From: Chloroflexota bacterium
GTDB taxonomy: Bacteria > Chloroflexota > Limnocylindria > Limnocylindrales > CSP1-4
Length of the DNA: 64,000 bases
Assembly (NCBI GenBank): GCA_003141955.1
Contig: PLOC01000003.1
Coordinates: 462 to 64,461, forward strand
Direction of reading: 5' to 3'
The notes under the pieces were generated by a model. The model worked only from the letters and a program-made list of their open reading frames with translations, was not told the origin of the DNA and ran no database searches. Both the position numbers and the translations under genes were made by a program. The first letter of the stretch is position 1, and the number at the start of each line of letters is the position of its first letter. Positions 1,652 through 57,185 of the stretch are shown here, piece by piece.

Positions 1652-2130
1652 GTTTCCACTCGCGTTCGATTGTCCCGCCTCACAGCGGACGGGGCCATCG
1701 AGGTTACCAGATGAAGGCAAACGGGCGCCGGGCGGCTTTCGTCGGGCGGCCGCCGGCCGAGTTCGCGGGTCGCCCCAGCCGCGCGAAGCTCCTCAACACT
1801 CATGGAGGGAGTGGTAAGTGGAGCTGAGCGGCCGGCCGTTGCCATCCCGAGGGTCGCCGTGGGCGTCGATTGACCGTTCGCAGCTAACAGCCGCCCCTCA
1901 GGGGCCGAATCCGTATGGCTGAGCGGCCGCGGATCGACCCGCGGCCTCGCCAGCCGCACTTTGCACTCTCTCCATGCGTAATGGGGAATTCCCGGCCGGC
2001 CCCGGCCATTCGGGGCCGCTCTCGGGAGCGAGCGGGCCGTTCGAGCCGGTCCGAGCCGCTCGCCCGGCTCGGCGCGGCCGCCCGCGTGCCCGCGTGCCCA
2101 CTCCGCCGCCCACTCCGCTCGCGCCGCGGG

Positions 2131-4671: not shown

Positions 4672-4793
4672 GTCGTGTCCTTCTGGGGGCGATGGCGCCT
4701 GAAATCGTAGCCCAGCCGCGGAAGGGGTGGTCGTCGCAGCGGTCGTGGCCTACCCTTGTTCGGCGTCCAGCGCAGCCGGGAAAGGGGCAGGGC

Positions 4794-5504
4794 ATGGCGA
4801 CCACGAAGAAGGGTGAGGACAACGGTCGAGCTGGCGGAGGAATCCCGGCTTCGAACGCGGGCGGCGCCTGGGGCCAGGGCCTGCCCGCCTACCCGGACTG
4901 GCTCCAGCCCTACCTGCCAGCGATGCACGACGGCTTCAACGGGTTCAACAGGTACGTCAGCGTGCCGGCCCTGAAAGCCGGCATGGGCAGGTTCGTGTCG
5001 AACCCGCTGACGGGCTACCTGATGATCCTGCGGACCCGCGGCCGTAGGAGCGGCGAGATGCGCGACGCCCCGCTCGGCTACATGATCGTCGGCGACGCTG
5101 TGTACGCCATGGCTGGCTTCGGTCGGGAGGCCCACTGGTTCAAGAACATCCAGGCGGACCCCCGGGTCGAGGTCATCCTCCCCGGTCGCGCCTTCTCGGG
5201 CACGGCCGAAGAGGTCACGGACACGGCCGAACGCCTGGCCGTCCTGCCTCCTCTTCTGCGCAGCATGGGCGGAGGCGCTGCGGCGATGGGCATGGGCAAT
5301 GTCTGGCAGATGACGCCTGAGGAGATCTCGGCCAGGTTCGACGGCCTGCCTCTGGTCCGGGTGCGGGCCACCGGCATCGCTGCGGGCCCCGAGGATCCGG
5401 GCGGCTGGTTCTGGGTCGTGCCCATCCTGTTCACGGGCTGGTGGCTGGTGCGATGGATACGAGGCCGCGGGCGCGCGCACAAAGCCCGGCGGGCGGACCG
5501 TTGA
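4794..5504 (+). CDS. deazaflavin (F420)-dependent nitroreductase family protein (DUF385/Ddn-like) with C-terminal hydrophobic tail
   Basis: Core region ...LRTRGRRSGEMRDAPLGYMIVGDAVYAMAGFGREAHWFKNIQADPRVEVILPGR... resembles the Ddn family. Start is chosen at ATG 4794 (MATTKKGEDNG) after the GAAAGGGG RBS; the ORF track extends to 4692. The C-terminus WFWVVPILFTGWWLVRWI is hydrophobic. Confidence 0.7.
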   Translation: MATTKKGEDNGRAGGGIPASNAGGAWGQGLPAYPDWLQPYLPAMHDGFNGFNRYVSVPALKAGMGRFVSNPLTGYLMILRTRGRRSGEMRDAPLGYMIVGDAVYAMAGFGREAHWFKNIQADPRVEVILPGRAFSGTAEEVTDTAERLAVLPPLLRSMGGGAAAMGMGNVWQMTPEEISARFDGLPLVRVRATGIAAGPEDPGGWFWVVPILFTGWWLVRWIRGRGRAHKARRADR

Positions 5505-6862
5505 CCGGGCCCGGCGGGACGTCTAGCGCGGACGGCGAGCCGTCGAGCCGACGCGGCCCCGCGCAACCCGGAGCCGGCGTCTTTGGCGCCGATCCGGCTC
5601 GTCGCCTCTTTGCCCGGGTCGCGTGCCTGGTCGTGGCTGTCATCGGCTGGGCCAACGTGGTGATCCTGGGGCGGGCGATGCTGTCGGCGTCGCCGCCCGA
5701 GGCTGGCTTCGACCTTCAACTCCTGCTCGACGCTGGCAAGCGCGTCGCAGCCGGCGGCTCACCGTACGACCCCAACGCGGTCGCGGCCGGGCTCCAGGCT
5801 CGCGACCTTTTCTTCTCATACCCGCCGGTCGTGGCGCAGATCTTGGCGCCGATCTCGGGTTTGCCGACGTGGCTCGTCCTGGCGGGCTGGTGCCTGGGCG
5901 CTGCAGCCGGGCTGGTCTTGATGGCTGCGCTCCTGCCGCGCTGGCCAATCGGCCGGCCCGCCCGGCCGATCGCCGACCTCTCTCTTGACACTGCGCTGCT
6001 CACACTCGCCGCGGCGCCGTTCTTCTTCCCGTTCGCGGTCGCGCTCCTGTTTGGCAACGTGGATGCCTGGTTCCCGTTCCTGTTCGGGGCGGTCGCGCTG
6101 ACCCTCGCGTCGGGTCGCGCCACTCCTTCGCGCCTGACGTCGGCGGCCGGAGGCGTGGCCCTTGCGGTCGCCTCTGCGGTGAAGCTGCACCCGGCCACGA
6201 TCGCCGTCTGGCTCGCTGCGGAACGACCGGCGCGGCCCGGCCTCCGTCGGCCCGGCCTCTTCGTCATCTGCGCGGCCGTCGCGGCGGGCGCGGCGATCCT
6301 GGCATTCAGCCTCGCCGTTGGCGGCGTTGGCCCCTGGCGCGAGTACATCGACTACCTTCGGGCGAGCGGAAATGCCGATCTGGCCTCGTCGGTGAACATC
6401 GGTCCGGCCAGCCAGCTTGCACTCCTGGCCGGCGACTCGAGTCTGGCTCGCCCGCTCGCGGTCGTTTTCGGCGTGATCGCGGTCGCCGCCACGCTCGCGT
6501 CCGCGAGGCTCTTGCGAGACCCGCTGGAGAGCTTCGGCTGGGCGGTCGTGGCCTCGCTTATCGTGCTGCCCGTGACCTGGTACCACTATCCCGTGGCGCT
6601 GGTACCGGTCGCGCTGGCGGCCTGGACTCGCAGCCGCGGAACGCCGCGCGGGCGCCGGGTCACCTGGGCGTTGATGGCGGCTCTTTTCGTGAGTGATGTC
6701 GCGATCGTGTTGCCGGTGGCGCTCTGGCTGGCCGTGGCGGTGCTGTTCGCCGCGGTTCGGTGGTCGCGCCCGCAACCGGGCCTCGAGCCTGCTCCGGACG
6801 CCGCACCGACGCCTCAGTCGGTTTCGGGCGAGGCGATCGCTCAGGTGCCGGTGCCCAGATGA
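5441..6862 (+). CDS. DUF2029 / GT87-family integral membrane glycosyltransferase (paralog a)
   Basis: Polytopic membrane protein with the DUF2029-type motif DLQLLLDAGKRVAAGGSPYD...LFFSYPP and a KLHP motif. Paralogous to 6859..7920 and 24896..25900. The start is uncertain: a TTG at 5501 overlaps the upstream stop as TTGA and is a plausible alternative. Confidence 0.7.
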   Translation: MAGAMDTRPRARAQSPAGGPLTGPGGTSSADGEPSSRRGPAQPGAGVFGADPARRLFARVACLVVAVIGWANVVILGRAMLSASPPEAGFDLQLLLDAGKRVAAGGSPYDPNAVAAGLQARDLFFSYPPVVAQILAPISGLPTWLVLAGWCLGAAAGLVLMAALLPRWPIGRPARPIADLSLDTALLTLAAAPFFFPFAVALLFGNVDAWFPFLFGAVALTLASGRATPSRLTSAAGGVALAVASAVKLHPATIAVWLAAERPARPGLRRPGLFVICAAVAAGAAILAFSLAVGGVGPWREYIDYLRASGNADLASSVNIGPASQLALLAGDSSLARPLAVVFGVIAVAATLASARLLRDPLESFGWAVVASLIVLPVTWYHYPVALVPVALAAWTRSRGTPRGRRVTWALMAALFVSDVAIVLPVALWLAVAVLFAAVRWSRPQPGLEPAPDAAPTPQSVSGEAIAQVPVPR

Positions 6863-7920
6863 GCATGTCCCGATCCGTCCGGGGGCACGGTGGGAGTTGG
6901 TCCGCAGACCTCATCGCGAGTCGCGTCGGTCGCCTGGTCCGGAGGGCGCTTGCCGAACCGCCGAGTCCACCGCTGCCTGGCGCCTCTCTGGAGCCCGGAT
7001 TCCGGCGTCGCTGGCTGGGGTTCTTCCTGCCCGGCGCGTTCATCCTGTTTTGGGTGATGACCTTCGCCGTCGGCTTCAACTCGCAAATAGTGGGCTTTGA
7101 CGCTCGCATCTACTACGACGGCTCGGCTGCCTGGCTGGCCGGCGGGAACCCGTGGACAACGGGCGCGCTCCTGGACGGACATCTGTTCAGCTATGCGGGC
7201 TTGCCCCCGACGGCGATCCTGCTTGCCCCGATGACGCTACTGCCTGAGGAAGCGTTCCTCTGGCTGTGGCTGGTTTTGTCAGTCGTGGCGGCGATCGTGA
7301 TCGTTCGAGCCCTTCGCTTGCCGGTCATCTGGGTTGTCTACCCGCCTTTGGCTATGGGCTTCATGTCGGCCAATCCGAATGTCGTTGTCGTAGCGCTCCT
7401 GCTTGCCGGCGCAACATGGGGCGGGGCTCTGGCCTCGGTAATCAAGATCGTCGCGATCCCGCCGCTCGTCGGCGAGCGCCGCTGGCGGGCGCTCCTGCTG
7501 GCGGCCACGGTCATGGGCGCATCGGCGATTCTGCTTCCAGGGCTGTGGTGGTCCTTCCTGCATCAGGCCGGGACGGTCCAGAACGCCATCAATGCCGAGT
7601 CCAGCGGCGGTTTCAGTGCCTGGGGCAAGCCGTATCTGCTCATCCCCACGGTCATCTCGCTCGGCGTCCTGGCGTTGCTCGACGTGCGGGCCGCTGCCTG
7701 GCTGGTCGTCCCGGCTCTGTTTCCGACGGCGCAGTACCACTACGCGATGTTCGCCCTTCCGGTCGACCCGTTCCTCGCCGCCTCCATGGCCTTTCCGATG
7801 TACTGGATGCCCCCACTCGCGACCATCGGCTACACGGCCGTGCGAATCGGCATCGTCGCGTGGCGGAGCTCAGGGCGTGCGAGCCCCCACCGTCCCGAGG
7901 CGCTCGGCAACTCCGAATAG
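6859..7920 (+). CDS. DUF2029 / GT87-family integral membrane glycosyltransferase (paralog b)
   Basis: Carries GFDARIYYDGSAAWLAGGNPWTTGALLDGHLFSYAGLPPT and a KIVAIPP motif, with multiple TM segments. Its ATG at 6859 overlaps the upstream stop (ATGA). Confidence 0.75.
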   Translation: MSMSRSVRGHGGSWSADLIASRVGRLVRRALAEPPSPPLPGASLEPGFRRRWLGFFLPGAFILFWVMTFAVGFNSQIVGFDARIYYDGSAAWLAGGNPWTTGALLDGHLFSYAGLPPTAILLAPMTLLPEEAFLWLWLVLSVVAAIVIVRALRLPVIWVVYPPLAMGFMSANPNVVVVALLLAGATWGGALASVIKIVAIPPLVGERRWRALLLAATVMGASAILLPGLWWSFLHQAGTVQNAINAESSGGFSAWGKPYLLIPTVISLGVLALLDVRAAAWLVVPALFPTAQYHYAMFALPVDPFLAASMAFPMYWMPPLATIGYTAVRIGIVAWRSSGRASPHRPEALGNSE

Positions 7921-8079
7921 GGTCGTGCGTCCGAATTCTCGGACTGCCGCCGCGAGAGGCCCAGGGTAACCGCCGAATCGGCGAGCTCCGCGCGGCCGAC
8001 CTACAATCCGACTCGCCGTCCCGCCAGAACGCCCGGCGGCGCGCCCGGTCGGGCGCCAGGAAGCCAGCAGGGAAGCCAG

Positions 8080-40581: not shown

Positions 40582-41340
40582 GTGCCCGACCACCCGCTCA
40601 TCCTCTCCGATATCCGGGCCGAGGCACAGCGCCTGGCCGAGCTTGCCGTCGAGGAAAGGATTCCGATGCGGCTCATGGGTGGCGTGGCCGTCTGGCTCTG
40701 CTCCGAGTCGGTCCGCAAGCCACCCTTCGCCCGCGACTACGCGGACATGGACTTCGCCGCGACCTCGAAGGGGCGCGCGGCGGTGAAGTGCTTCCTCGAC
40801 GATCAGGGCTATGTCCCCGAGAAGCTCTTCAATGCCATCCACGGCGCCCAGCGCCTCAACTACGCCGAGCCCAACGGCCGCTGGACGATGGACATCCTGA
40901 TCGACGAGCTGGCGATGAGCCACCGCCTGGACCTGCGGGGCCGGCTCGACGGCCCGCAACCCACGATCTCGCTGGCGGACCTGGTCCTGACCAAGCTGCA
41001 GATCTGGGAGATCAACCGAAAGGACGTGGGCGACGTGCTCTGCCTGCTGGCCGACCATCCGCTCGGCAAGGATGGCGTCGGGGCGATCGGGCTCGACCGA
41101 ATCGGAGCCGTGCTCGGCTCGGATTGGGGCTTCTGTCACACGGCCGAGCGGAACCTGGGCAAGGTTGCCGAGCTGTGGGCCGCGGAACCCGCGGATGGTG
41201 CTCCTTTCGACGTCGCGCGCCAGGTCGAGGGGATCGTCGCCGCCATCGCCGCCGCTCCCAAGTCGCTGGCGTGGAAGACTCGCGCTCGGATCGGGGAGCG
41301 GCTTCGCTGGTACGAGACGCCTGAAGAGGTCCAGCACTAG
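40582..41340 (+). CDS. hypothetical protein, possible nucleotidyltransferase fold
   Basis: RLMGGVAVWL...DYADMDFA resembles the minimal NTase signature (GG...DxD). GTG start. Confidence 0.35.
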   Translation: MPDHPLILSDIRAEAQRLAELAVEERIPMRLMGGVAVWLCSESVRKPPFARDYADMDFAATSKGRAAVKCFLDDQGYVPEKLFNAIHGAQRLNYAEPNGRWTMDILIDELAMSHRLDLRGRLDGPQPTISLADLVLTKLQIWEINRKDVGDVLCLLADHPLGKDGVGAIGLDRIGAVLGSDWGFCHTAERNLGKVAELWAAEPADGAPFDVARQVEGIVAAIAAAPKSLAWKTRARIGERLRWYETPEEVQH

Positions 41341-42818: not shown

Positions 42819-43601
42819 ATGTCGAAGGAACATCTCATGTACGCCCGCCTTCGCAACGTCATCGCCGCCGTAGGGGCGGCCGCTCTCGTCGTGGTCTCAT
42901 CCTCCAGCGCGGGCGCGGTTTCATCCGCTCCCGTTTCCGGAGGCCCTCTCGGAGCGGGCACCTGCGCAGCTCAGGCGCTGGCGGCGCGAACGCATGGCAC
43001 GGTGGCCGCGCTTCGGAGCTTCGGCGATTGCGAGATCGGGCGTCGCCAGACGACGCTCGCGGGCCTGACCTCCGTCGTGAACGGGTCGCAGGCGCTGACC
43101 GCCTCCGATCGGGCCGCGCTGACGGCCGAGATCGGGGCGGAGTCGTCCGGCCTGGCCGTCCTGAAGACGGCGATTGACGGTCAGACCACGCTTCCGGCGC
43201 TCAAGCTCGAGATCGTCCAGATCGCGTCGAAGTACCGCGTGTACCTGCTGGTCGCACCGCAGGTCTATCTCGTCGATGCCGCCGAGGACGTTCTCGCGCT
43301 GCAGCCGTCCTTCACGCAGACGGCGACCGTTCTGGCGGGGCGGATCGCCACGGCAGAGGCCAACGGCAAGGACGTGACCGCCGCCCAGGCGAGCCTGACG
43401 TCGATGAACGGTGAAGTTGCCGCGGCTATGGCGCTGGCGTCGCCGCTGCCGGGCCGGCTCCTGCCCCTGACCGCCGCCCAGTGGAACGCCGGGACGGCCG
43501 GGCCGGTTATGACGGCTGCGCGCGCGGCGCTCGTTTCGGCGCGCGGCCACCTGCAGGCTGCGGTCAAGTTCGGCCGCGCGGTGATCGTCGCCCTGCAGTA
43601 A
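42819..43601 (+). CDS. secreted hypothetical protein
   Basis: N-terminal signal peptide (AAVGAAALVVVSSSSAGA). No recognisable domain. Confidence 0.5.
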   Translation: MSKEHLMYARLRNVIAAVGAAALVVVSSSSAGAVSSAPVSGGPLGAGTCAAQALAARTHGTVAALRSFGDCEIGRRQTTLAGLTSVVNGSQALTASDRAALTAEIGAESSGLAVLKTAIDGQTTLPALKLEIVQIASKYRVYLLVAPQVYLVDAAEDVLALQPSFTQTATVLAGRIATAEANGKDVTAAQASLTSMNGEVAAAMALASPLPGRLLPLTAAQWNAGTAGPVMTAARAALVSARGHLQAAVKFGRAVIVALQ

Positions 43602-43827
43602 CCGGGGGAGTGGCTGGGCGCCTCGCGCTTCAAGCCGGAACGTTACCGGGGTCGGTCGCCTGCTGGCTGCCGCACGAGGCAGCCTTCACATGAGGATTCG
43701 CCGAGGACAGACCTGCGCTTGAGATCGCATTGACAGCATTGCCCGCGGCGTGATTGACTGCGGCGCGGCCGGCCGTTCCGTGGTCCACGGGATAGAGTCG
43801 GCGGTCGGGCGCGGGGAGGATCCCACG

Positions 43828-45567
43828 GTGGATGGCGCCGACAGACCGTCTCGGTTCGATCCGGAGCCGCCCGGGGCGGGCGTCGGCCGGCTGACCATCA
43901 TCGCCCAGGACCCCGCGGTCATGGTCGACGGCAGGATCCTGCGCGCCGTCGTGACGATCCCACCCGATCGTCTGGAACCGGGCCCACGCGGGCCCAGGTT
44001 CTGGGTCGTGGACTACGACTCGACGGCCCGCCGGGTCGTAGCACCGGCACCCGATCCGTGGCTGGACGCCATCGCCGCCTGCGCGGACGATGGGCTCGCA
44101 GCGGATCCCCGGGTTCGAGCGCAGAACGTCTACGTCGTGGCCGCCCGGACTCTGGAGACCTTCGAGAAGGCGCTGGGGCGACGGCTCAATTGGGGCTTCG
44201 CCGGGCACCAGCTGTACCTGGTGCCGTCAGCCTTTGCGGAGGCCAACGCTTTCTACGACCCGGATTCGTGCGCCGTCATGTTCGGCTACTTCCAGCCGGC
44301 GGAACCGGCCGGGGCAGCCACGGTATTCACCTCGCTGTCGCACGACATCGTCGCCCACGAGACGACCCACGCCATTCTCGACGGACTGCGGCGCCGCTTC
44401 GAGGAGCCGTCGCTGCCGGACCAGGCCGCCTTCCACGAAGCGCTGGCCGACATCGTGGCCCTGCTGTCGGTCTTCTCCATCCGCGAAACGGTTCTCGCGC
44501 TGGTACCCGGCGACCCCGACACGGGCCTGGCGGACGAGTCGAAGGTGACCGCCGGGGAGCTCGGCCGAACCGCCCTTCTCGGCCTGGCCGAACAGTTCGG
44601 GGCCGCTGTCCGCGTCCACGGCGGCGACGCTCTGCGCCGCTCCGTGAACCTGGCTGCAAACCCGGCGCTGCTTTCGGCGCCGGCATATCAGGAGCCCCAC
44701 GCCCGGGGTGAGATTCTGGTCGCGGCCGTCGGCAACGCCCTGCTCGAGATCTGGACCAGGCGCCTGGTGGACGTCCACGCCGCGGGCACGCCGCTCCATC
44801 GGACGCGCGTCGCGGACGAGGGCGTAAAGACCGCCGGCAATGTCCTGACCATGTGCATCCGGGCGATCGACTACCTGCCTCCGGTGGACCTTTCCTTCGA
44901 CGACTTCGCCACCGCGCTGCTGGCCGCCGACGAGGAGGTCGTTCCGGACGACCGACACGACTACCGCGGCACGCTGGAGAAGGCCTTCCGCCGATACGGT
45001 ATCCGGGAGGCCCGGCCGCAGCACGTCGCAACCTTCGGGCGCAGGGACGCCCCGACGTACCGGTCGATCCACGAGGAGGAGCTGCGCATCCGCCGCGACG
45101 AGGTCTTCCGCCTGCTCTGGCAGAACGCGACGCTGCTCGGGATTCCCACCGATTACTACCTGTCGGTCGAGACGGTCACGCCCTGCGCACGCGTGGCACC
45201 AGATGGGTTCGTCGTGCGCGAAGTCGTGGCCACATACATCCAGATGCTCGACGGCACGGCCGCCGAGTTGCGGGCACTGGCGGCGCGCCTTGGCGGTGAG
45301 CTGGTGATCCCCGCCGGCGTCAGCGACGCGACGCGGCTGGAGCTGCTCGGCGGCGGCACGGTCATCTTCGACGAGTTCGGCCGGCTGCGCTACCACCAGC
45401 CCAAGCCGCTCCTGGATTGGGGACGTCAGTCGCGCCGGCTCGACTACCTGGTCCGCAACGGAATGCGCGACACGCACGGTGGCGTGGGTTACTCGCAGGG
45501 GATGCCGCTCGGCCAGCGGTTCGCGGTCATGCACGCCCAGGAGCCCGACACGGGGGAGACATGGTGA
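43828..45567 (+). CDS. thermolysin-like (M4-type) zinc metallopeptidase domain protein without signal peptide
   Basis: NAFYDPDSCAVMFGYF (compare thermolysin NAFWNGSQMVYGDG). VAHETTHAILD is the HExxH motif. AAFHEALADIVA matches GAINEAISDIFG, the third zinc ligand Glu. No hydrophobic N-terminus. GTG start 43828 after GGGAGGA. Confidence 0.65.
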   Translation: MDGADRPSRFDPEPPGAGVGRLTIIAQDPAVMVDGRILRAVVTIPPDRLEPGPRGPRFWVVDYDSTARRVVAPAPDPWLDAIAACADDGLAADPRVRAQNVYVVAARTLETFEKALGRRLNWGFAGHQLYLVPSAFAEANAFYDPDSCAVMFGYFQPAEPAGAATVFTSLSHDIVAHETTHAILDGLRRRFEEPSLPDQAAFHEALADIVALLSVFSIRETVLALVPGDPDTGLADESKVTAGELGRTALLGLAEQFGAAVRVHGGDALRRSVNLAANPALLSAPAYQEPHARGEILVAAVGNALLEIWTRRLVDVHAAGTPLHRTRVADEGVKTAGNVLTMCIRAIDYLPPVDLSFDDFATALLAADEEVVPDDRHDYRGTLEKAFRRYGIREARPQHVATFGRRDAPTYRSIHEEELRIRRDEVFRLLWQNATLLGIPTDYYLSVETVTPCARVAPDGFVVREVVATYIQMLDGTAAELRALAARLGGELVIPAGVSDATRLELLGGGTVIFDEFGRLRYHQPKPLLDWGRQSRRLDYLVRNGMRDTHGGVGYSQGMPLGQRFAVMHAQEPDTGETW

Positions 45568-46847
45568 GCCAATCGCCGGTTCGCATCGACTTTCGCGCCT
45601 ACAACGTCGGGTTCGGCGATTGCCTGCTGCTCAGCTTCACCTACCCGGCCCCGATCGATGGACGAGCGGAGCGCCACGTCCTGATCGACTTCGGGTCGAC
45701 CAAGGCGGCCAGGGGCGGGCCGAGCCTGGCGGACGTCGCCGCTCTCATCGAGGCCGACACGCACGGCAAGCTCGACGTAGTCGTCCTCACCCATCGCCAC
45801 CGCGATCACCTGGCGGGGTTCGACCCGGCCACAGGCGGGGCGACAATCGCCCGCCTTGCGCCCGACGCGATCATTCGACCGTGGACTGAGGTGCCGAACG
45901 GCGCGGCGCCTGCTGCCGCGCCCTCGCCTGGTCGGCGCAAGCTGCTCGACGTCCTGGCTTCGGGGAACGGGTTCGCCCGCAGCATCACCGCGATCCCGTT
46001 CGCCGGCCGGCTCGGCGTCGCCGAATCCGCGCTGATGAGCATGGCGGCGATGCAGCTCGGCAACGATAGGGCCATCGGGCAGCTGGACCAGCTCGCCGCC
46101 GCAAGCTCGGCCCACTACCTGAAGTTCGGCGACCCGCTCGTCCTGGACATGCTGCCCGGAGTTTCCGTCTCGGTCCTCGGTCCTCCGGACCCGGAAACGT
46201 GGCCCGCGGTGCTGCACCAGGCCGCGCAGAGCACCGAGTACTGGCTTGGCGCCGGAAGCGCCGATCCGGCGGCGCTCACGGCCTCCGCCGCCGGAACGCC
46301 TCTCGGCATGGATGGCGACGCCGAATCTCTCCTGGAACCCGGCCCGGGGCGCTGGCTGATCGACCGCCTGGACGACCACCTCGTCCGCTCGGCCGAACGA
46401 TTGGTCCACCAGCTCGACAGCGTCCTCAACAACACCAGCCTGGTGCTGCTCGTGGAGGCCGCTGGCCACAAGCTCCTGCTGCCCGGCGACGCCGAGGTGG
46501 AGAACTGGGGCTACGCGCTGACGGCCGCGCCGGACCACCAGGGCATCTGCGATCGGCTGCGGGGCGTGGACCTCTACAAGGTCGGCCACCACGGCAGCCG
46601 CAACGCCACTCCCAAGCTGTCGCTCTACCCGCTCCTGGCCGTGACGCCGCCGGGCCGCGTCGCCGTTATGTCGACCCTCGTCGGCTTCTACGGCACGACA
46701 AACCCGGTCCCGAGCCAGGCGCTGATCGACAAGCTGTCGCTGCCGCCGTTCACGCTCCTGCGAACCGACGTCGCCGGCTCCACGACCGGTGCACGATCAG
46801 TCCACCTCGCCGCCACCGACTCGACGGCCTTTGCTCCGGCCGACTGA
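45561..46847 (+). CDS. MBL-fold metallo-hydrolase, ComEC/Rec2-like subtype
   Basis: VVVLTHRHRDHLAGF (HxHxDH) and a later KVGHHGSRNATP (HHGS motif). ATG overlaps the peptidase stop (ATGGTGA). Confidence 0.7.
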   Translation: MVSQSPVRIDFRAYNVGFGDCLLLSFTYPAPIDGRAERHVLIDFGSTKAARGGPSLADVAALIEADTHGKLDVVVLTHRHRDHLAGFDPATGGATIARLAPDAIIRPWTEVPNGAAPAAAPSPGRRKLLDVLASGNGFARSITAIPFAGRLGVAESALMSMAAMQLGNDRAIGQLDQLAAASSAHYLKFGDPLVLDMLPGVSVSVLGPPDPETWPAVLHQAAQSTEYWLGAGSADPAALTASAAGTPLGMDGDAESLLEPGPGRWLIDRLDDHLVRSAERLVHQLDSVLNNTSLVLLVEAAGHKLLLPGDAEVENWGYALTAAPDHQGICDRLRGVDLYKVGHHGSRNATPKLSLYPLLAVTPPGRVAVMSTLVGFYGTTNPVPSQALIDKLSLPPFTLLRTDVAGSTTGARSVHLAATDSTAFAPAD

Positions 46848-46990
46848 CGGTCAAGAGCCGATCCCCGCGGCCGCGTCTTCACGAACCGGCTTTCTCTCTA
46901 GGGATTGACCCTCGGTGGGGCCTTCAGCGGCCGGCGCCGAGCGCCGACTATTCCGTACGGAGGGGCCGACACACCGGCAAGGAGCTACGC

Positions 46991-47716
46991 GTGGACGGCT
47001 TGTCATCCGTGCAGCTGAACGTCGCCTCGCTGGGCGCGTCTCAGCTCACAACCACACAGTCCTGGCGCACACACAGCCATCCGGCAATGGATGCCGCTGC
47101 CACGACGCTGGGCATGAGCGCGAGCGACCTCCGCACTGCGCTGCAGAGCGGCCAGAGTCTCGCATCGATCGCCTCCTCGAAAGGCATAAGCGAGACCACG
47201 CTGACCGCGGCGATGGCGGCCGCGATCGAGCAGGCGAATCCCGGCATCTCCGCCGATCAGGCTACCAAAGTCGCGACGGCGATCGCGACCCGCACGCCTC
47301 CGGCGGGCTCCGCGCCCGCCCAGACCGGAACCTCGAGCAGCGCCACCCAGGCGACCACTGGGGCCACCACCGGCACTACCGCCGCCGGCGGCCATCACCA
47401 CCACCATCACCATCACGCCATGAGCACGGCGGTGGACGCTACCGCGCAGCTGCTCGGCACGACGACCACCGACCTCGCCACTTCGCTGCAGAGCGGCCAG
47501 ACCCTCGCCCAGATCGCGTCAGCGCAGGGCGTCAGCCAGAACGACCTGGTCACGGCGATCTCGAACGCGCTCCAGCAGGCCGACTCGAATCTCTCCTCCG
47601 ACCAGGCGACCCAGCTGGCCACGACGCTGGCCACCGGAACGCCCCCGACCGGCGGGACTCAGCCCTGGGCAACCGGGAAGACGGGCACCTCGAGCACGTA
47701 CAACATTCTCGCCTGA
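46991..47716 (+). CDS. His-rich repeat protein (two repeats of about 70 aa flanking an H8 tract)
   Basis: GTG start 6 nt after AAGGAG. Repeats ...TLGMSASDLRTALQSGQSLASIASSKGISETTLTAAM...TPP and ...LLGTTTTDLATSLQSGQTLAQIASAQGVSQNDLVTAI...TPP are separated by HHHHHHHH (47393-47416). Confidence 0.5.
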   Translation: MDGLSSVQLNVASLGASQLTTTQSWRTHSHPAMDAAATTLGMSASDLRTALQSGQSLASIASSKGISETTLTAAMAAAIEQANPGISADQATKVATAIATRTPPAGSAPAQTGTSSSATQATTGATTGTTAAGGHHHHHHHHAMSTAVDATAQLLGTTTTDLATSLQSGQTLAQIASAQGVSQNDLVTAISNALQQADSNLSSDQATQLATTLATGTPPTGGTQPWATGKTGTSSTYNILA

Positions 47717-51703: not shown

Positions 51704-51779
51704 TGGAGCGGGAGACGGGATTCGAACCCGCGACATTCTGCTTGGGAAGCAGACACTCTGCCAGCTGAGTTACTCCCGC
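51704..51779 (-). tRNA. tRNA-Gly (anticodon CCC)
   Basis: GCGGGAGTAACTCAGCTGGCAGAGTGTCTGCTTCCCAAGCAGAATGTCGCGGGTTCGAATCCCGTCTCCCGCTCCA. Cloverleaf with anticodon loop TTCCCAA, a GTTCGAATC T-loop, discriminator U and encoded CCA. Confidence 0.9.
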
Positions 51780-51782
51780 TCG
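51741..51782 (+). repeat. att core copy 1 (inside tRNA-Gly; covers tRNA nt 1-39 plus 3 nt of 5' flank)
   Basis: CTTGGGAAGCAGACACTCTGCCAGCTGAGTTACTCCCGCTCG; identical 42-mers at 54735-54776 and 56923-56964. Confidence 0.85.
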
Positions 51783-51866
51783 ATTCACGCTCGTGGAGAG
51801 CGTCTGCCTTTCGGAGAGGCCCGCCGCGCTGGTCCTGGAGCAGAAAACTGAGTAAGATGGTGCGAG

Positions 51867-52907
51867 ATGCGCGAGCCATCCGACCCAGCCTCGCTGCCAC
51901 CCGTGCGACGTGCCCGACCGAGCGGCGCCCATCCTACACCGCGCCCCGCCGCCCCGGCAACGACCGCCCTCGCCTCCGACATCGCGAGCTTCCGCCGCCA
52001 TCTCGCGGCCCGCAACCTGTCGCCCAAGACCGAGCGGACGTACACCGACGCCGCAGTCCTGTTCGAGGCCTTCATTGCCCGCGAGGGTCCGCCCGCTGCC
52101 CTGCCGGCGATCCGGCGCGAGCACGTCGAGGCCTTCATAGCCGACCAGCTCCGCCGTTACAGGCCCACCACCGCGCACAACCGGTACCGCAGCCTCCAGG
52201 CGCTTTTCAAGTGGGCAGTCGAAGAAGAGATGATTGTGACCTCGCCGATGGATCGGATGAAGCCGCCGATCGTCGGGGAGCAGCTGCCGCCGATGCTGAG
52301 TGACGATGAGATCCGGGCCTTGCTCAACGTCTGTGCCGAAGATCACACGTTCGCGGGCCGGCGCGACGAGGCGCTCGTCCGGGTGCTGCTCGACAGCGGT
52401 GCCCGTCGGGCCGAGATCGCCGCACTGCGCTGGACGCCTGGCAACCCGGAAACGAACGACGTCGACCTCGATGGCCGCCAGCTGCGGGTGCTGGGGAAGG
52501 GCCGGCGGGAGCGCCTGGTGGTGATCGGTCGAGAGGCGGTCAGGGCACTCGATCGTTACCTGCGCTACCGCGACGGCGGAACACGTCATGGCAAGTTGAT
52601 CCCGCCGCACCACTCGGCTCACCTGCCCAACCTTTGGCTCGGACCCAAGGGCGCCTTCACGGAATCCGGGATGGGCCAGATGATCCATGAACGGGGCGTC
52701 GCCGCCGGTCTCGGGCATCACGTTCACCCCCACATGTTCCGCCGGACCTACGCCCACAAGATGCTCGCCGGGGGCATGAGCGAGACCGATCTGATGACGC
52801 TCGCTGGCTGGCGCTCACGGACGATGGTCTCGCGCTACGCCGCGTCGGCGGCCGCTGAGCGAGCCGCCGAGGTGGGTAAGCGGCTGAGCCCGGGCGACAA
52901 GCTGTAG
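51867..52907 (+). CDS. int: tyrosine recombinase / phage-type integrase
   Basis: N-terminal SAM-like domain (ASDIASFRRHLAARNLSPKTERTY). Catalytic region has HPHMFRRTYAHKM and MVSRYAAS (Tyr). Confidence 0.85.
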   Translation: MREPSDPASLPPVRRARPSGAHPTPRPAAPATTALASDIASFRRHLAARNLSPKTERTYTDAAVLFEAFIAREGPPAALPAIRREHVEAFIADQLRRYRPTTAHNRYRSLQALFKWAVEEEMIVTSPMDRMKPPIVGEQLPPMLSDDEIRALLNVCAEDHTFAGRRDEALVRVLLDSGARRAEIAALRWTPGNPETNDVDLDGRQLRVLGKGRRERLVVIGREAVRALDRYLRYRDGGTRHGKLIPPHHSAHLPNLWLGPKGAFTESGMGQMIHERGVAAGLGHHVHPHMFRRTYAHKMLAGGMSETDLMTLAGWRSRTMVSRYAASAAAERAAEVGKRLSPGDKL

Positions 52908-52966
52908 GTGCTGGCGCGTCGGGGGATTACCGAGGCCGGCGTCCAGCCCGGTCGCGTCCGGCGGGG

Positions 52967-53902
52967 TTGCGAGTTCGTCAGGGGCCTCCACCGCCAGTGC
53001 GATCAGGTGCAGGATTCGACGAAGAGCGTGCGATCCTGCCTATGAGCGACCTGGCGGGTCTGACTGTTTGCTCTGCTCGGTCTTGGCCAGCACACATCAC
53101 GACCGGAGAGGTTCACGGACGGCAACCGGCCCTCAGCGTCGCGAGCACGAAGGCAGCGCTCGCGGCCTTGACTGCCACCCTCCGCATCTATACTGTTCGC
53201 ACTATGTTTGAGGATACGTCTTCCCCTGCGCCGGGCTTTCTGCCCATCGTCCCCGCGGCCAAACGCCTCGGCGTCACGCAGGGGCGAGTCCGTCAACTGA
53301 TCAAGTCCGGCGATCTCCTCGCCAACCAGGTTGGCGACATCTGGCTTGTCGAGAGTGAGAGCGTGGAACGCCGGATCGCCCTTGCGCCGGGCCATGGCCG
53401 CAGGCTCACGCCAGCTCGCGCCTGGGGCCTATTGTGCATTGCCGATCACCAGCCGGCTCCGTGGCTCGATAGGTCCGCCCGATACAGGGTGAGGGCGCTG
53501 CTCCGAGATCGCGGTCTTCGCGCCTTGAGTTCGAAGCTGGTCGATCGGGGTCTGCCCGTGCGGCTACGATCCCACCCATCTCTTCTCCGGCGACTGCGCA
53601 ACGATCCCCGCCTCATGCTGACCGGCGCTACGGCCGCGGCCGAACTCGGTCTCGGCCTGCTTGCTGGCGATGTCGTGGAGGCATACATCGAGGGCGGCCG
53701 GTTCGAGGAGATCAGCCAGGAGTATCACCTGCAGCCGAGCCGAGAGACCAACGTCGTGCTGCGTCGGGTTCGGGACTTCGCGGCTACTTGGCCGCTCGCT
53801 CCCAAGACGCCACTGTTGGCCATCGCGCTCGATCTTTCCGAGGATCCCGATCCGCGGGTGCGCGAACTCGGGGCGTCACTGCTCGACCGCATTGACCCGT
53901 GA
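52967..53902 (+). CDS. AbiEi-like type IV toxin-antitoxin antitoxin / transcriptional regulator (excisionase-type HTH)
   Basis: LPIVPAAKRLGVTQGRVRQLIKSGDLLANQVGDIWLV is an excisionase-family HTH, followed by an AbiEi-like C-terminal domain. The true start may be the ATG at 53204. Confidence 0.5.
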   Translation: MRVRQGPPPPVRSGAGFDEERAILPMSDLAGLTVCSARSWPAHITTGEVHGRQPALSVASTKAALAALTATLRIYTVRTMFEDTSSPAPGFLPIVPAAKRLGVTQGRVRQLIKSGDLLANQVGDIWLVESESVERRIALAPGHGRRLTPARAWGLLCIADHQPAPWLDRSARYRVRALLRDRGLRALSSKLVDRGLPVRLRSHPSLLRRLRNDPRLMLTGATAAAELGLGLLAGDVVEAYIEGGRFEEISQEYHLQPSRETNVVLRRVRDFAATWPLAPKTPLLAIALDLSEDPDPRVRELGASLLDRIDP

Positions 53903-54624
53903 CTCAGCCGATCGTCGTCCATTCGGCAAGCGAGGCCGATGCACACCTCTGGCGGCTGACCAAGGAGATCACGGTCTTGTTCGCCGGCCTGCCATGGGTC
54001 CTCATCGGGGGTCAGATGGTCGCCATCCTCGAGGCTGAGCACGGGGCTGTTATTGGCAGGGCGACGGCAGACGTCGACGCGCTGCTCGATGTGCGGGTCG
54101 TGTCCACCGTCGCCCAGGATGCCGCAAATCTCCTCCGAGCTGCTGGCTTCGAGCCTGAGCAGATCGGCGAAGGACTGGCATATCGCTTCAGGCGAGGCGC
54201 TGGCATCGTCGACATCCTGGTTCCCGACCATCTCGGCGGCCGCGCCGATTTGCGGACTGTGCCGCCCGGCATCACGCTTGAGGCGCTTGGTGGCCGCCAA
54301 GCGCTGAACCGGTCTCGCCGGGTTCAGGTGGATGCCGGGGACGGCGTCTTCGAGGTGCCCATCCCTTCGCTCATCGGCGCGATCGTGATCAAGGCCCGCG
54401 TTACCGGGGCCAGCCAGACTGGCGCCGACAAACACCGTCGCGATCTCGCCCGATTGCTCGCCCTGGTCCAAGACCCAACCGCAAGCCGAGGTGAGCTGAA
54501 CAAGGGTGAGCGAGCCTGTTTGCGAGCTCGGACCGAACTTCGGAGCGTCGATCACCCGGCCTGGCGCGGCATCGCAGGAGCGAAAGACGGCGTCCTGGCC
54601 CTCTCGATCCTGGGTGGCTCGTAG
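53899..54624 (+). CDS. AbiEii-like nucleotidyltransferase toxin (DUF1814 type)
   Basis: VLIGGQMVAILEAEHGAVIGRATADVDALLDV is the NTase GG...DxD signature. GTG overlaps the upstream stop (GTGA). Confidence 0.5.
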   Translation: MTQPIVVHSASEADAHLWRLTKEITVLFAGLPWVLIGGQMVAILEAEHGAVIGRATADVDALLDVRVVSTVAQDAANLLRAAGFEPEQIGEGLAYRFRRGAGIVDILVPDHLGGRADLRTVPPGITLEALGGRQALNRSRRVQVDAGDGVFEVPIPSLIGAIVIKARVTGASQTGADKHRRDLARLLALVQDPTASRGELNKGERACLRARTELRSVDHPAWRGIAGAKDGVLALSILGGS

Positions 54625-54734
54625 CCATCGCAGCAGGGGCTGGCTCGTGTCAAGTCGCCAAGAGCAACAGCGTATAACTGGGTGAGAAACCGAGGGGTCG
54701 CCATGAGGGGGGCCGTGGCTGTGGGAGGCTCAGA

Positions 54735-54776
54735 CTTGGGAAGCAGACACTCTGCCAGCTGAGTTACTCCCGCTCG
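54735..54776 (+). repeat. att core copy 2, embedded in a flank of about 150 bp shared with copy 3
   Basis: Identical 42-mer. Flanks GAGGGGTCGCCATGAGGGGGGCCGTGGCTGTGGGAGGCTCAGA and ...GTTATAGCAGATCGCGCGA are shared with copy 3. Confidence 0.85.
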
Positions 54777-54930
54777 GAGCAGAACGAGTTATAGCAGATC
54801 GCGCGAAGGCCGCGGAAGAGCGCGATTGGGCGGAGGTCTGCCAGACGCGAAGAATGTCGGAAGGTCGGTTTGCCGCTGGTCTCCACGAGATGACCCGACG
54901 AAGAACTTCGGCGGCGGCCCGTCCCGAGCC

Positions 54931-55590
54931 TCAGCTAGGCAGCGCCCTGTTCGCCCGTACCCATTCGAGCCAGTGGCGTTCGGCTCCGATGGTGGTTGCC
55001 GCACCGTGGCCGGGCAACACCGTCAGCCGGTCGTCCAGACCGACCAGGCGGCTCAGCGACTCTGCCATCTGCTCCTCGGATCCGCCGGGGAGATCGGTCC
55101 GGCCCCATGATCCTGCGAACAGCGTGTCACCCGAGAGCAGGAGACTGTTCGTGAGGTCGAGCAGACAGACCGAGCCCTCGGTGTGTCCCGGCGTGTGCAG
55201 GACCTCGAGGTCGATCTCGCCGAACTTGACTCGGCCACCCTCGGCCAGTTCCACCGCCGGAACGCTGGGCGGGATGGGAAACGGGGCGAAGAGCGGCTGC
55301 GGGTGCAAGAGCATCTCGCGGTCGAGTGGATGCACGGCGATGCGAGCGTCGTCGCCGCGTTGACGACCGTGCGTCCAGGCTTGCACAGCCGCGTTGTCGC
55401 CCACGTGGTCCCAGTGGCCGTGGGTGGACACGATCAGTTTCAGCCGCCAGCCACGCTCCTCGAGGAGGCCGCCCAGCCAGGCAACCGAGGGAATCGCCGT
55501 GTCGATCGCGATCGCCTCGTGCGTCCGCGAATCGGCGAGGACGTAGACGTTGGTCGCGATCGGGCCAACCGTCCGGCTGAGGAGCTCCAT
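54931..55590 (-). CDS. MBL-fold metallo-hydrolase (glyoxalase II / hydroxyacylglutathione hydrolase-like)
   Basis: VSTHGHWDHVGD (HxHxDH) and later PGHTEGS. 219 aa. Confidence 0.75.
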   Translation of the reverse strand: MELLSRTVGPIATNVYVLADSRTHEAIAIDTAIPSVAWLGGLLEERGWRLKLIVSTHGHWDHVGDNAAVQAWTHGRQRGDDARIAVHPLDREMLLHPQPLFAPFPIPPSVPAVELAEGGRVKFGEIDLEVLHTPGHTEGSVCLLDLTNSLLLSGDTLFAGSWGRTDLPGGSEEQMAESLSRLVGLDDRLTVLPGHGAATTIGAERHWLEWVRANRALPS

Positions 55591-55820
55591 GCTCGGAGAC
55601 TAGCACGGCTTCGAGGTGGTCCCGCTGGCCACCAGCCTGGGCCGTTGCGGCACATGGTCGGCGCCGCGAGTCGGTCCCATCAGACTGGCGCCGGTCAACT
55701 TACGATCCGACGGGCGGCTCACACAGGTTTCGGTCTCGCGTCCGCGACCACGAGGTGGCGCGTTCGGCGTAGGCTGGACAAGTCCGGGTTCATCGCGCCC
55801 TGTGGGCCGCCCATACCGTA

Positions 55821-55925
55821 GCGGGCTGGCGCTCGCGGACGATGGTTTCGCGCTACGCGGCGTCGGCCGCCACCGAACGGGCCGCTGAGGTGGGCAAGCG
55901 GTTGAGCCCGGGCCGACAAGCTTTA
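55821..55925 (+). pseudogene. integrase 3'-end remnant
   Basis: About 85% identical to the last 100 nt or so of the int gene, plus roughly 100 nt of downstream similarity (GCTGGCGCTCGCGGACGATGGTTTCGCGCTACGC...). A 1-nt indel gives GGGCCGACAAG versus GGGCGACAAG. Confidence 0.7.
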
Positions 55926-56111
55926 GGTGCTGGTTCGTGGGAGATTACCCAGCCTAAGGTCCCGCACGGTCGCCTGGGGCGGGGTTGCCGAGTTCGTCTG
56001 TGGTCTCCGCCGCCGGTGTTCGCCGTCCCGAGCCGCAGGGCGAGTCGCCGGAGGCGGTCCTCGACTGCGAGATGCTCACCGCCAGGAGTGCCGTCCGCGG
56101 TGTGTGTGATG

Positions 56112-56669
56112 TCAGGTGTCGGAGCGGAGCGGCTCGAGTGTGAGGGTCAGCACGTCCTTTCGCGCGAAGATGCCCAGGAAGCGAACGCCGCAGAGGAAGA
56201 GCGCGACGCCGAGCCCGCTGTAGAAGAAGGCGATCATCCAGTCCGGCATCAGGTGCGAGAGGCGGAGTGCCATGCCGCCGCCCATCATCACCGCCATCAC
56301 CGCCCAGGACGAGGCGTTGAAGAAGTGCCAGAAGGGGAGCCGATCCTCCGCCCGCGCGCGGATTCGACCGGCGTGCTTCCGGACGAGCCGGGAGAAGATG
56401 ACGAAGTAGAACACGAGGAAGATCACCACCGCGAGCGGGAAGAGGATCAGGTGCGAGGGCGCCAGCCCGAACTCCAACGGCAGCCCGATTATGCAGACCA
56501 TCGCCCCCGCCGCGCACCAGACTAGGCCGGCGATGAGCATCAGGTGGTTCTTGGGAATGTGGACGACTTGCACGCTTCGAACACTCCTGACGCACTGGTC
56601 GATGGGTGGCGCGATTGTACCCACACGGAATGTGAGGTCGCGCGCAGAGGTATCAGCCTGGCGCTCCAC
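56112..56669 (-). CDS. small integral membrane protein (hypothetical)
   Basis: Four hydrophobic helices (MLIAGLVWCAAGAMVCIIGL...). The reported start is GTG at 56669; the internal ATG at 56540 is an alternative. Confidence 0.45.
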   Translation of the reverse strand: MERQADTSARDLTFRVGTIAPPIDQCVRSVRSVQVVHIPKNHLMLIAGLVWCAAGAMVCIIGLPLEFGLAPSHLILFPLAVVIFLVFYFVIFSRLVRKHAGRIRARAEDRLPFWHFFNASSWAVMAVMMGGGMALRLSHLMPDWMIAFFYSGLGVALFLCGVRFLGIFARKDVLTLTLEPLRSDT

Positions 56670-56922
56670 GGCTCGGGGTGCGCATCACTGCCCGTCGGCG
56701 ATGTCCCGCGCTGGTCCGATCTTCCGGCCGGGGATCGTTTGGGACCCTACGGCCGCCCCCGGGTGGCTCCTCGACGAACTGCTGCCGAACCTGGAGATCT
56801 GACGGGCGATTGGGGCGGCATGGCGGTCCACTCGTCTCGAATTGGCCCAGAGTGACAGCGGATAACTGTGGTCGAAACGGAGGGGTCGCCACGAGGGGAG
56901 CCGTGGCTATGGGAGGCTCAGA

Positions 56923-56964
56923 CTTGGGAAGCAGACACTCTGCCAGCTGAGTTACTCCCGCTCG
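56923..56964 (+). repeat. att core copy 3
   Basis: Identical 42-mer. Confidence 0.85.
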
Positions 56965-57185
56965 GCGAGCAAGCGCAGTTATAGCAGATCGCGCGAGAGG
57001 GTCGGAAGGGGGCTGGTCAAGGGCTTTCGGTCGCGCGGACATTCTGCGCAGGAGGCAAAGGCACTCGGTCTATCGGCCTTGTTCTGGTTCTGGCCGAGCG
57101 ACGGGATGGCGCAACGCGCCTGAACCGGTGGCCCGAGGACGGTCGATTCGCTGCCATCCCCGGCCACCGCGGCGTCCAGCGACCC

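Follow-up and report, generated by a model that had tools for sequence, protein, structure and literature searches.

What is a thermolysin-like zinc peptidase that carries no export signal doing in overlap with a ComEC-like metallo-beta-lactamase (MBL) protein? The question is raised by a 64,000-nucleotide (nt) stretch of a Chloroflexota genome (assembly GCA_003141955.1, contig PLOC01000003.1, positions 462 to 64,461 of the forward strand; hereafter the window), whose G+C content is ~69%. An initial annotation, made from the letters of this stretch alone, had pointed out three consecutive genes: a peptidase gene (here gene A), an MBL gene (gene B) and a gene for a His-rich protein. We find that genes A and B recur as a pair, and we lean, with somewhat more conviction than doubt, towards reading the pair as a self-contained, protease-licensed two-gene abortive-infection (anti-phage) module, with a predicted protease cleavage and a predicted DNase activity at its core.

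Linkage and co-evolution of the peptidase and MBL genes

Gene A lies on the plus strand (43828..45567), encodes 579 amino acids (aa) and starts with GTG, 7 nt downstream of a Shine-Dalgarno-like GGGGAGGA (43813..43820, plus strand) read from the sequence; an identical protein with the same start is present in public data (P0001). Gene B (45561..46847, plus strand) encodes 428 aa, and its start codon falls on the stop codon of gene A in the overlap ATGGTGA (45561..45567, plus strand) that had first drawn attention to the pair, an arrangement that suggests translational coupling. A scan for promoters and terminators was uninformative. The three genes, the motifs NAFY, HETTH, EALAD, HRHRDH and GHHGS and the eight-residue His run all stand where the initial annotation had put them, each motif at the expected codons, and the features of genes A and B and of the His-rich gene lie far beyond chance because they are conserved family-wide.

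The interest of the locus had been made to depend on whether the pairing recurs in other genomes, and the neighbourhood census clearly revealed that it does. Genome loci were collected by scanning one genome per species with a degenerate pattern, which returned more than 566 peptidase relatives; 80 loci were kept and, together with three found earlier, gave 83. The MBL gene lies directly 3' of the peptidase gene and on the same strand in 79 of these, and the other four stop at a contig edge. The reverse search, started from the MBL in metagenomes, found the peptidase directly 5' at 53 of the 54 loci with room for it. Pairwise distances among the peptidases and among the MBL proteins were strongly correlated (Mantel r=0.84, n=113 pairs; 0 of 999 permutations as high). 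The peptidase-MBL pairing is effectively obligate.

The module spans at least 13 phyla, its neighbours being unrelated, and is common in Actinomycetota and Chloroflexota; its peptidase family comprises 4309 clusters at 50% identity at E<=1e-3, and 1186 at E<=1e-30. The nearest relatives of the window are found in metagenome-assembled genomes of Candidatus Limnocylindrales (Chloroflexota). One relative with a 90%-identical peptidase (L084) shares the upstream genes and has an ABC transporter at the position of the His-rich gene, and an 80%-identical copy occupies another locus, beside an FtsZ/FtsA division cluster. All-versus-all clustering of the open reading frames (ORFs) of the 83 loci found no recurrent neighbours other than patatin and Tle1-like genes. 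Since linkage holds both ways, the His-rich gene is absent from related loci and the neighbours differ, the unit consists of two overlapping genes that move as one. The gene directly upstream (42819-43601), whose product is a secreted, helical protein of 260 aa that has a clear signal peptide and matches no family, was considered as a further member and rejected, being syntenic in the 90% relative only and absent elsewhere.

A separate observation concerns the end of gene A (45553-45567), which reads E-x-W right before the overlapped stop in 23 of the 23 sequences of the alignment. More distant peptidase relatives have a different C-terminal tail and 30-200 nt between the two genes. The conserved C-terminal Trp may either be imposed by the ATGG overlap or mark a functional C-terminus.

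Catalytic sites and domains of the two proteins

The product of gene A had been recognized by its motifs as thermolysin-like. Judged by sequence, it is a cytoplasmic M4-like gluzincin outside M4 proper, because it lacks a signal peptide and a propeptide, lacks the M4_C domain and scores below the family threshold. The zinc ligands H177 and H181 and the catalytic E178 lie in HETTH (44356..44370), the third ligand E204 and D208 form the ExxxD of the 'glutamate helix' in EALAD (44437..44451), and NAFY (44245..44256) corresponds to N112-A-F-W115 of the substrate-binding strand of thermolysin (all plus strand). N140, A141 and Y143 of NAFY and the residues H177, E178, H181, E204, D208, H291, D348 and Y349 are all invariant in 113 sequences, the sample to which invariance refers throughout.

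Alignment of the peptidase family with thermolysin by hhalign placed HETTH on H142-E143-xx-H146 and FHEALAD on INEAISD, with E204 and D208 on E166 and D170 (87% probability, E 3.8e-6). The family profile compared with PDB sequences likewise put aureolysin and thermolysin on top, weakly. The Pfam profile Peptidase_M4 (PF01447) reached 16.9 bits on the window peptidase, under its gathering score of 22.4, and matched 18 of 23 relatives at E<=0.1 (best E 7.3e-6); the same Pfam search gave no match in the window peptidase to Peptidase_M4_C (PF02868) or to an FTP/PepSY propeptide. Three parts make up the protein: a beta region at the N-terminus (~20-71), the thermolysin-like catalytic core (~95-390) and, C-terminally, an alpha+beta domain (~398-579). 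In the AlphaFold2 (AF2) model (mean predicted local distance difference test, pLDDT, 76.8; predicted template modelling score 0.84), an N-terminal beta region is followed by a beta subdomain, the HExxH helix (172-186), the glutamate helix (197-216) and a helical subdomain, and a separate alpha+beta domain is modelled at ~417-545. What gene A shares with thermolysin (MEROPS M4; PF01447, PF02868) is thus HExxH, the downstream ExxxD glutamate helix, the NAF[WY] strand and the order of secondary structure; it differs in its predicted cytoplasmic location, in having neither a signal peptide nor an FTP/PepSY propeptide, in its extra N- and C-terminal domains and in a His-to-Glu spacing of 23 residues rather than 20.

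The absence of a signal peptide, also part of the initial annotation, was upheld by the hydropathy of the N-terminus from either start of gene A, including the upstream one: the top 12-residue Kyte-Doolittle average is 1.1-1.5, compared with 2.8 in the secreted protein encoded upstream. The C-terminal extension noticed at the same time corresponds to a conserved domain of ~180 aa (residues ~398-579; 45019..45564, plus strand), for which profile searches of Pfam and PDB found no relatives and to which the weak NTF2-like Foldseek matches of the gene A model are restricted. Plasmid relatives align with the window peptidase over residues ~10-400/436 only, and more distant zincin-MBL subfamilies have a different sequence in place of this domain, which is a candidate for sensing or oligomerisation. 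Other architectures were seen as well: a zinc phospholipase C (PLC) N-terminal to the zincin (P0270), a zincin joined to an MBL (P0277), zincin proteins of 1000-1200 aa with an N-terminal extension of ~500 aa that has no Pfam match (P0294, P0295, P0315 and P0335), and zincin cores with differing C-terminal domains.

Gene B encodes a ComEC-like MBL-fold hydrolase, as shown by structural comparison, hidden Markov models (HMMs) and an AF2 model (pLDDT 78.5), and a putative gated pro-nuclease. Its top Foldseek match is the MBL domain of ComEC (9ic4; E 2.4e-11, template modelling score 0.74 when normalised to the 266-residue target), in line with the ComEC type first assigned from motifs; a profile match to 9ic4 spans both core halves, and RNase J and CPSF-type nucleases follow in the structural list after the second-best match, which is taken up below. 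The MBL motifs are HRHRDH (motif 2; H78, H80, D82 and H83; 45792..45809), NNTS (N290 and N291; 46428..46439), which aligns to NNNS of 9ic4, D310 of PGDA (motif 4; 46488..46490) and GHHGS (motif 5; H343 and H344; 46584..46598), all on the plus strand, and each of the residues named is invariant, as is D43. In NNTS an Asn presumably takes the place of the motif-3 His, as in the structure of Pce. Gene B thus resembles ComEC/Rec2 in its HxHxDH, NNxS, GD and GHHGS motifs and in its fold, and differs from it in having neither a transmembrane competence domain nor an OB fold.

Among HMMs, both core halves of gene B matched the PADLOC models for the LmuA-type MBL (1.5e-14; core segments only), the reverse transcriptase-associated MBL (2.9e-8) and PDC-M48B (3.6e-8), and NCBIfam matches were obtained to Avs1a (5.8e-9) and ComEC_Rec2 (1e-7). 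The Avs1a model (NF041809) gave 35.2 bits against a cut-off of 420, and the ComEC/Rec2 model (TIGR00361) gave 30.5 bits against a cut-off of 190, over its last ~100 positions only.

The most distinctive property of gene B is its length between HxHxDH and NNTS, ~207 residues compared with ~70 in ComEC. About 135 to 160 residues are extra relative to the ComEC domain, and they fall in two insertions. Insertion 1 (residues ~108-200; 45882..46160, plus strand), delimited by the spacing relative to 9ic4 and by the conservation and indel profile, contains a hypervariable, indel-rich loop at ~111-160 (pLDDT 60 at 111-120). Insertion 2 (residues ~212-288; 46194..46424, plus strand), delimited by pLDDT and conservation, consists of a disordered loop and then a long helix that leads into the metal-ligand strand; the loop at 222-260 is also hypervariable, with pLDDT <50 at 222-251 and conservation of 0.22-0.25 with indels at 231-260.

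Two further comparisons of gene B stand apart. The 6A-MBL system of Pseudomonas jumbo-phage defence was considered as its identity and rejected, the match being weak and N-terminal only. MBL residues 287-348 (46419-46604) match the PHROG family phrog_7043, 'tail protein' (E 8.7e-11, positions 767-820 of 1077), which suggests that a ComEC-like MBL domain may be present in some tail proteins of phages.

Proposed protease licensing of the MBL protein and competing explanations

ComEC-like MBLs encoded beside proteases have been shown to be 'gated' pro-nucleases, whose active site is closed off by a pair of insertions; the protease encoded alongside cuts each insertion once (I118/I218 in HamM, I134/I234 in EpiAvs1a and I133/I232 in VcMBL), and the cut MBL is a Zn-dependent DNase that brings about abortive infection (PMC12799240, PMC12642450). 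Such protease-activated pro-nucleases were demonstrated in Hachiman, AVAST (antiviral NTPases of the STAND superfamily) and Canu (Tuck et al. 2025, PMC12799240; Evans et al. 2025, PMC12642450), and the partner proteases in both studies are trypsin-like, caspase/CHAT or S8 subtilisin-like. The nuclease activity of VcMBL is abolished by D276A (PMC12642450), and D310 of gene B corresponds by motif to this catalytic D276. A 'Clade 3' of protease-associated MBLs has been tied, by computational observation, to S8 subtilisin-like proteases (PMC12799240, PMC12642450). The texts of both papers and the supplements of Tuck et al. make no mention of a metalloprotease partner. The statement of the initial annotation that such a pair is not a described module is therefore half right: pairs of a protease and an MBL pro-nuclease have been known since 2025, and what is new here is the zincin partner.

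Like the MBLs of Hachiman HamMAB, AVAST (Avs1a/Avs1b, Avs2 and Avs4), Lamassu and defence-associated reverse transcriptase systems, gene B encodes a ComEC-like MBL with two insertions and an adjacent, co-evolving protease, and its loops (~115 and ~235) lie near the cut sites mapped at 118/218, 134/234 and 133/232 in the trypsin-type systems. However, in contrast to the trypsin-type systems, the window protease is a zinc metallopeptidase that stands alone, with no STAND, HamA or LmuA sensor fused to it, its gene precedes that of the nuclease, and the loops have no conserved Ile. Canu (CanABC) is similar in layout, being compact, having a stand-alone protease gene 5' of the gated MBL nuclease gene and lacking a classical sensor nucleoside triphosphatase (NTPase). 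It differs in its protease, a cysteine enzyme of the caspase/MALT1-like type that carries an Ig-like domain, and in having CanB as a partner, whereas the window has two genes and a metalloprotease, and accessory phospholipases, present at some zincin-MBL loci, are undescribed for Canu. A tblastn search of plasmids for Avs1a and HamM sequences found zincin-associated MBLs only. The 'zincin' of Kaur et al. 2020 was considered as an earlier mention and set aside, as it concerns FxSxx-COOH peptide processing and another family.

The nearest relatives of the window pair are probably the S8-linked MBLs of Clade 3, even though the window protein has no S8 domain and the published descriptions name S8 only and no zincin. 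On plasmid pCMU01 of Methylorubrum extorquens CM4 (L168 6705-11247), a 1032-aa protein labelled 'S8 family serine peptidase' is in fact a fusion of an S8 domain and an M4-like zincin that has the motifs of both, HETTH...FHEAFAD of the zincin being intact; the next gene encodes an MBL that shares 29% identity with that of the window (E 2e-23). This fusion implies that the published S8 clade may hide a zincin domain and, possibly, a two-protease cascade.

The context of related loci is consistent with a role in defence. The pCMU01 pair is flanked by a DUF2235 gene and two SIR2 genes. In Agrobacterium vitis pAvCG78b, a peptidase-MBL-DUF2235 array with a 4-nt overlap at each junction lies between PD-(D/E)XK/UvrD genes and a DEAD-box helicase gene. 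On Rhizobium leguminosarum plasmids, relatives adjoin Hachiman (DUF1837 plus helicase) and the cyclase of a cyclic oligonucleotide-based antiphage signalling system (CBASS), one of them with a patatin gene directly upstream. Immediate genomic neighbours gave single matches to HamA, caspase, bacterial gasdermin (bGSDM), TIR, PycC, DarG, ZorD, MADS and type IV restriction models, and one copy of the module lies inside a toxin-antitoxin-rich island. About a quarter of the loci carry an added phospholipase: a patatin gene is found at 18 loci, mostly immediately upstream, and a Tle1-like/DUF2235 (PF09994) gene at 6. The co-occurrence with defence islands that the initial annotation had proposed to look for is thus seen for plasmid copies, for some genomic neighbours and for the toxin-antitoxin island, but not for the window or its closest relative. 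Of the roles that the annotation had put forward, defence is the best supported.

Linkage, co-evolution, intact catalytic sites, a ComEC-like fold with two variable insertions and a plasmid defence-island context are what was directly established. From them we infer the following course of events. Gene B would encode a metal-dependent ComEC-type nuclease made as an inactive zymogen, its active site gated by the two insertions between HxHxDH and the NNTS strand. In the resting state the two proteins would be co-translated or co-expressed through the overlap, and the zincin would be kept inactive by its own accessory domains. An infection cue would then act on the zincin, for which the variable C-terminal domain is the best candidate as sensor or oligomeriser; since the pair includes no gene for an NTPase sensor, sensing probably falls to the N- and C-terminal domains of the peptidase itself. 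The triggered endopeptidase would cut both exposed hypervariable loops of the gene B product, and the freed MBL might degrade DNA indiscriminately, so that the cell dies or is arrested, which would be the defence phenotype. Where a phospholipase is present (patatin, Tle1-like/DUF2235 or fused zinc PLC), it may serve as a second, membrane-directed effector, possibly licensed in the same way.

Several observations weigh against this course of events. No residue in either loop is conserved at more than ~50% in the 113 sequences, so that there is no conserved cleavage-site residue, whereas the known systems have a conserved P1 in each gating loop, Ile or, in Canu, Gly; a metalloprotease might instead recognise P1' hydrophobics. 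Searches with Pfam, NCBIfam and PADLOC found no sensor NTPase or helicase encoded with the pair, unlike in the characterised systems. Within ~5 kb of the pair, neither the window nor the 90% relative has any other defence gene, and the surroundings are of the housekeeping type. The second-best structural match of gene B is the phosphorylcholine esterase Pce. The Avs1a and ComEC HMM scores of gene B are alike (35 and 30 bits), so that it is anatomy and context, and not a tree, that speak for its affinity to the 'gated' radiation over ComEC proper. For the peptidase, Foldseek of the full-length model against PDB returned no significant whole-model match, which leaves the thermolysin fold without confirmation at the fold level, and NCBIfam and PADLOC gave no match, PADLOC having no model for such a peptidase.

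The lack of a conserved cleavage motif in the MBL loops would agree with a conflict system wired differently, in which the zincin is an effector that acts on a host or phage protein, as do Lit and CapP-type metalloproteases, and the MBL is an independent effector or regulator. The defence-type context and modularity suit this arrangement equally, and the target of the zincin need not be the MBL, because the zincin is also fused to S8 and PLC domains and encoded beside phospholipases. However, the obligate 1:1 pairing, the tight co-evolution and the natural zincin-MBL fusion point to a direct partnership, the two-insertion anatomy is that of proven zymogens, and the hypervariable loops suit a co-evolving interface of protease and substrate. 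We therefore regard the alternative wiring as unlikely, if still a serious competitor.

More doubtful is a housekeeping or catabolic function, in which the MBL would be a phosphodiesterase that, like Pce and NAPE-PLD-type enzymes, acts on small phosphoesters or on the head-groups of phospholipids, and would work with the peptidase, and sometimes with phospholipases, in membrane or envelope turnover. The Pce match would agree with it, as would the neighbours of the pair in the window (transporters, a DeoR regulator, a luciferase-like oxidoreductase, a methyltransferase and an ECF sigma factor). At the other loci, too, most immediate neighbours are ordinary, unrelated metabolic or housekeeping genes, lipases are the only recurrent accessory genes, and no copy was found in the viral contigs searched. 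Such a function would not lead one to expect a patchy spread in which the neighbourhoods shift across at least 13 phyla, or copies on conjugative plasmids in Hachiman/CBASS/SIR2 islands; the top structural and HMM matches are to nucleases and defence MBLs, and the strict coupling to an endopeptidase and the two hypervariable loops in an otherwise invariant enzyme would go unexplained. That the two proteins are toxins exported, by secretion or injection, in competition between bacteria is suggested by the Tle1-like (PF09994) and patatin neighbours, both classic effectors of the type VI secretion system, but is scarcely credible: both proteins lack a signal peptide, the neighbourhood census revealed no recurrent genes for secretion systems or immunity, and the type VI system is not known from Actinomycetota and Chloroflexota.

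Within the protease-licensed reading, a wider proposal can be made only tentatively, namely that the M4-like zincin is a fourth, overlooked protease class that licenses both gated MBL pro-nucleases and phospholipase zymogens (patatin, Tle1-like and PLC), that it provides NTPase-free immunity with two genes, and that it is the hidden, conserved partner in the S8 clade. If so, one polypeptide would both sense infection, through its variable C-terminal domain, and execute activation, and the S8-zincin fusions would be two-protease cascades. The general logic of proteolytic licensing of death effectors was set out only in 2025 and for serine and cysteine proteases only, so that a metalloprotease version, if true, would add a third catalytic class. 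With two genes and no NTPase sensor, the system would be among the simplest in which to study how a protease senses infection, and the phospholipase add-ons would suggest that lipases, too, may be protease-gated zymogens. Defence-finding pipelines probably miss the family, because the peptidase is picked up by none of the models of Pfam, NCBIfam and PADLOC. A thermolysin-like protease that works in the cytoplasm, cuts site-specifically and comes with a cognate zymogen could also become a tool.

The His-rich gene, accessory genes and other elements of the window

The third gene of the initial annotation (46991..47716, plus strand) encodes 241 aa, with two ~72-aa repeats on either side of a His-rich linker that contains the H8 run (47393-47416); its exact sequence is present in public data. 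It had been proposed as a metal chaperone or buffer that completes the set. By tblastn it has no match in any of 166 related loci, including the relative with the 90%-identical peptidase, and we accordingly exclude it as a third member; a set made of two zinc enzymes and a metal buffer is not the organising logic of the locus, because the protein is absent from related loci. It belongs to a lineage-restricted family of 208 matches, seemingly confined to Limnocylindrales-like genomes and labelled 'YidB/DUF937' by some pipelines. Pfam yields only short LysM-like or helix-turn-helix-like matches. The linker between the repeats is His-rich in most members (runs of 2-8; for example HGHHHHHGHH and HKHGHHRHR), its kind being conserved and its length not. 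The protein may bind metal, and nothing ties it to the module.

A PADLOC scan of the neighbouring ORFs (E<=1e-5) matched no family by more than one ORF among the 25 of 30 families listed, and among these the 17 patatin-like genes next to the module therefore share no CBASS CapV-type model. They seem to form a distinct patatin clade (for example L012 5802-6971 and L086 6961-8001). At one patatin-zincin-MBL locus (L003), a cluster of LanC-like, HopA1, APH-type kinase and astacin-like peptidase genes lies upstream (1847-7970), and it may be a separate peptide-modification or conflict cluster. A phage origin of the module found no support: there are no relatives in IMG/VR and no PHROG match for the peptidase.

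Elsewhere in the window, the gene at 40582-41340 is syntenic in the 90% relative; its product, of 252 aa, matches NTP_transf_5 faintly and has no assigned function. Past 52 kb the G+C content of the window falls to 0.65-0.67. A tRNA-Gly(CCC) gene (51704-51779, minus strand) is followed by a tyrosine integrase gene (51867-52907), and 42 nt over the 5' half of the tRNA (51741-51782) are repeated exactly at 54735-54776 and 56923-56964, two sites that have in common a 126-nt repeat of 89% identity. The region 51704-57013 has the appearance of two small elements integrated one after the other at tRNA-Gly, and the second of these putative elements carries a canonical Lactamase_B gene (54931-55590, minus strand).

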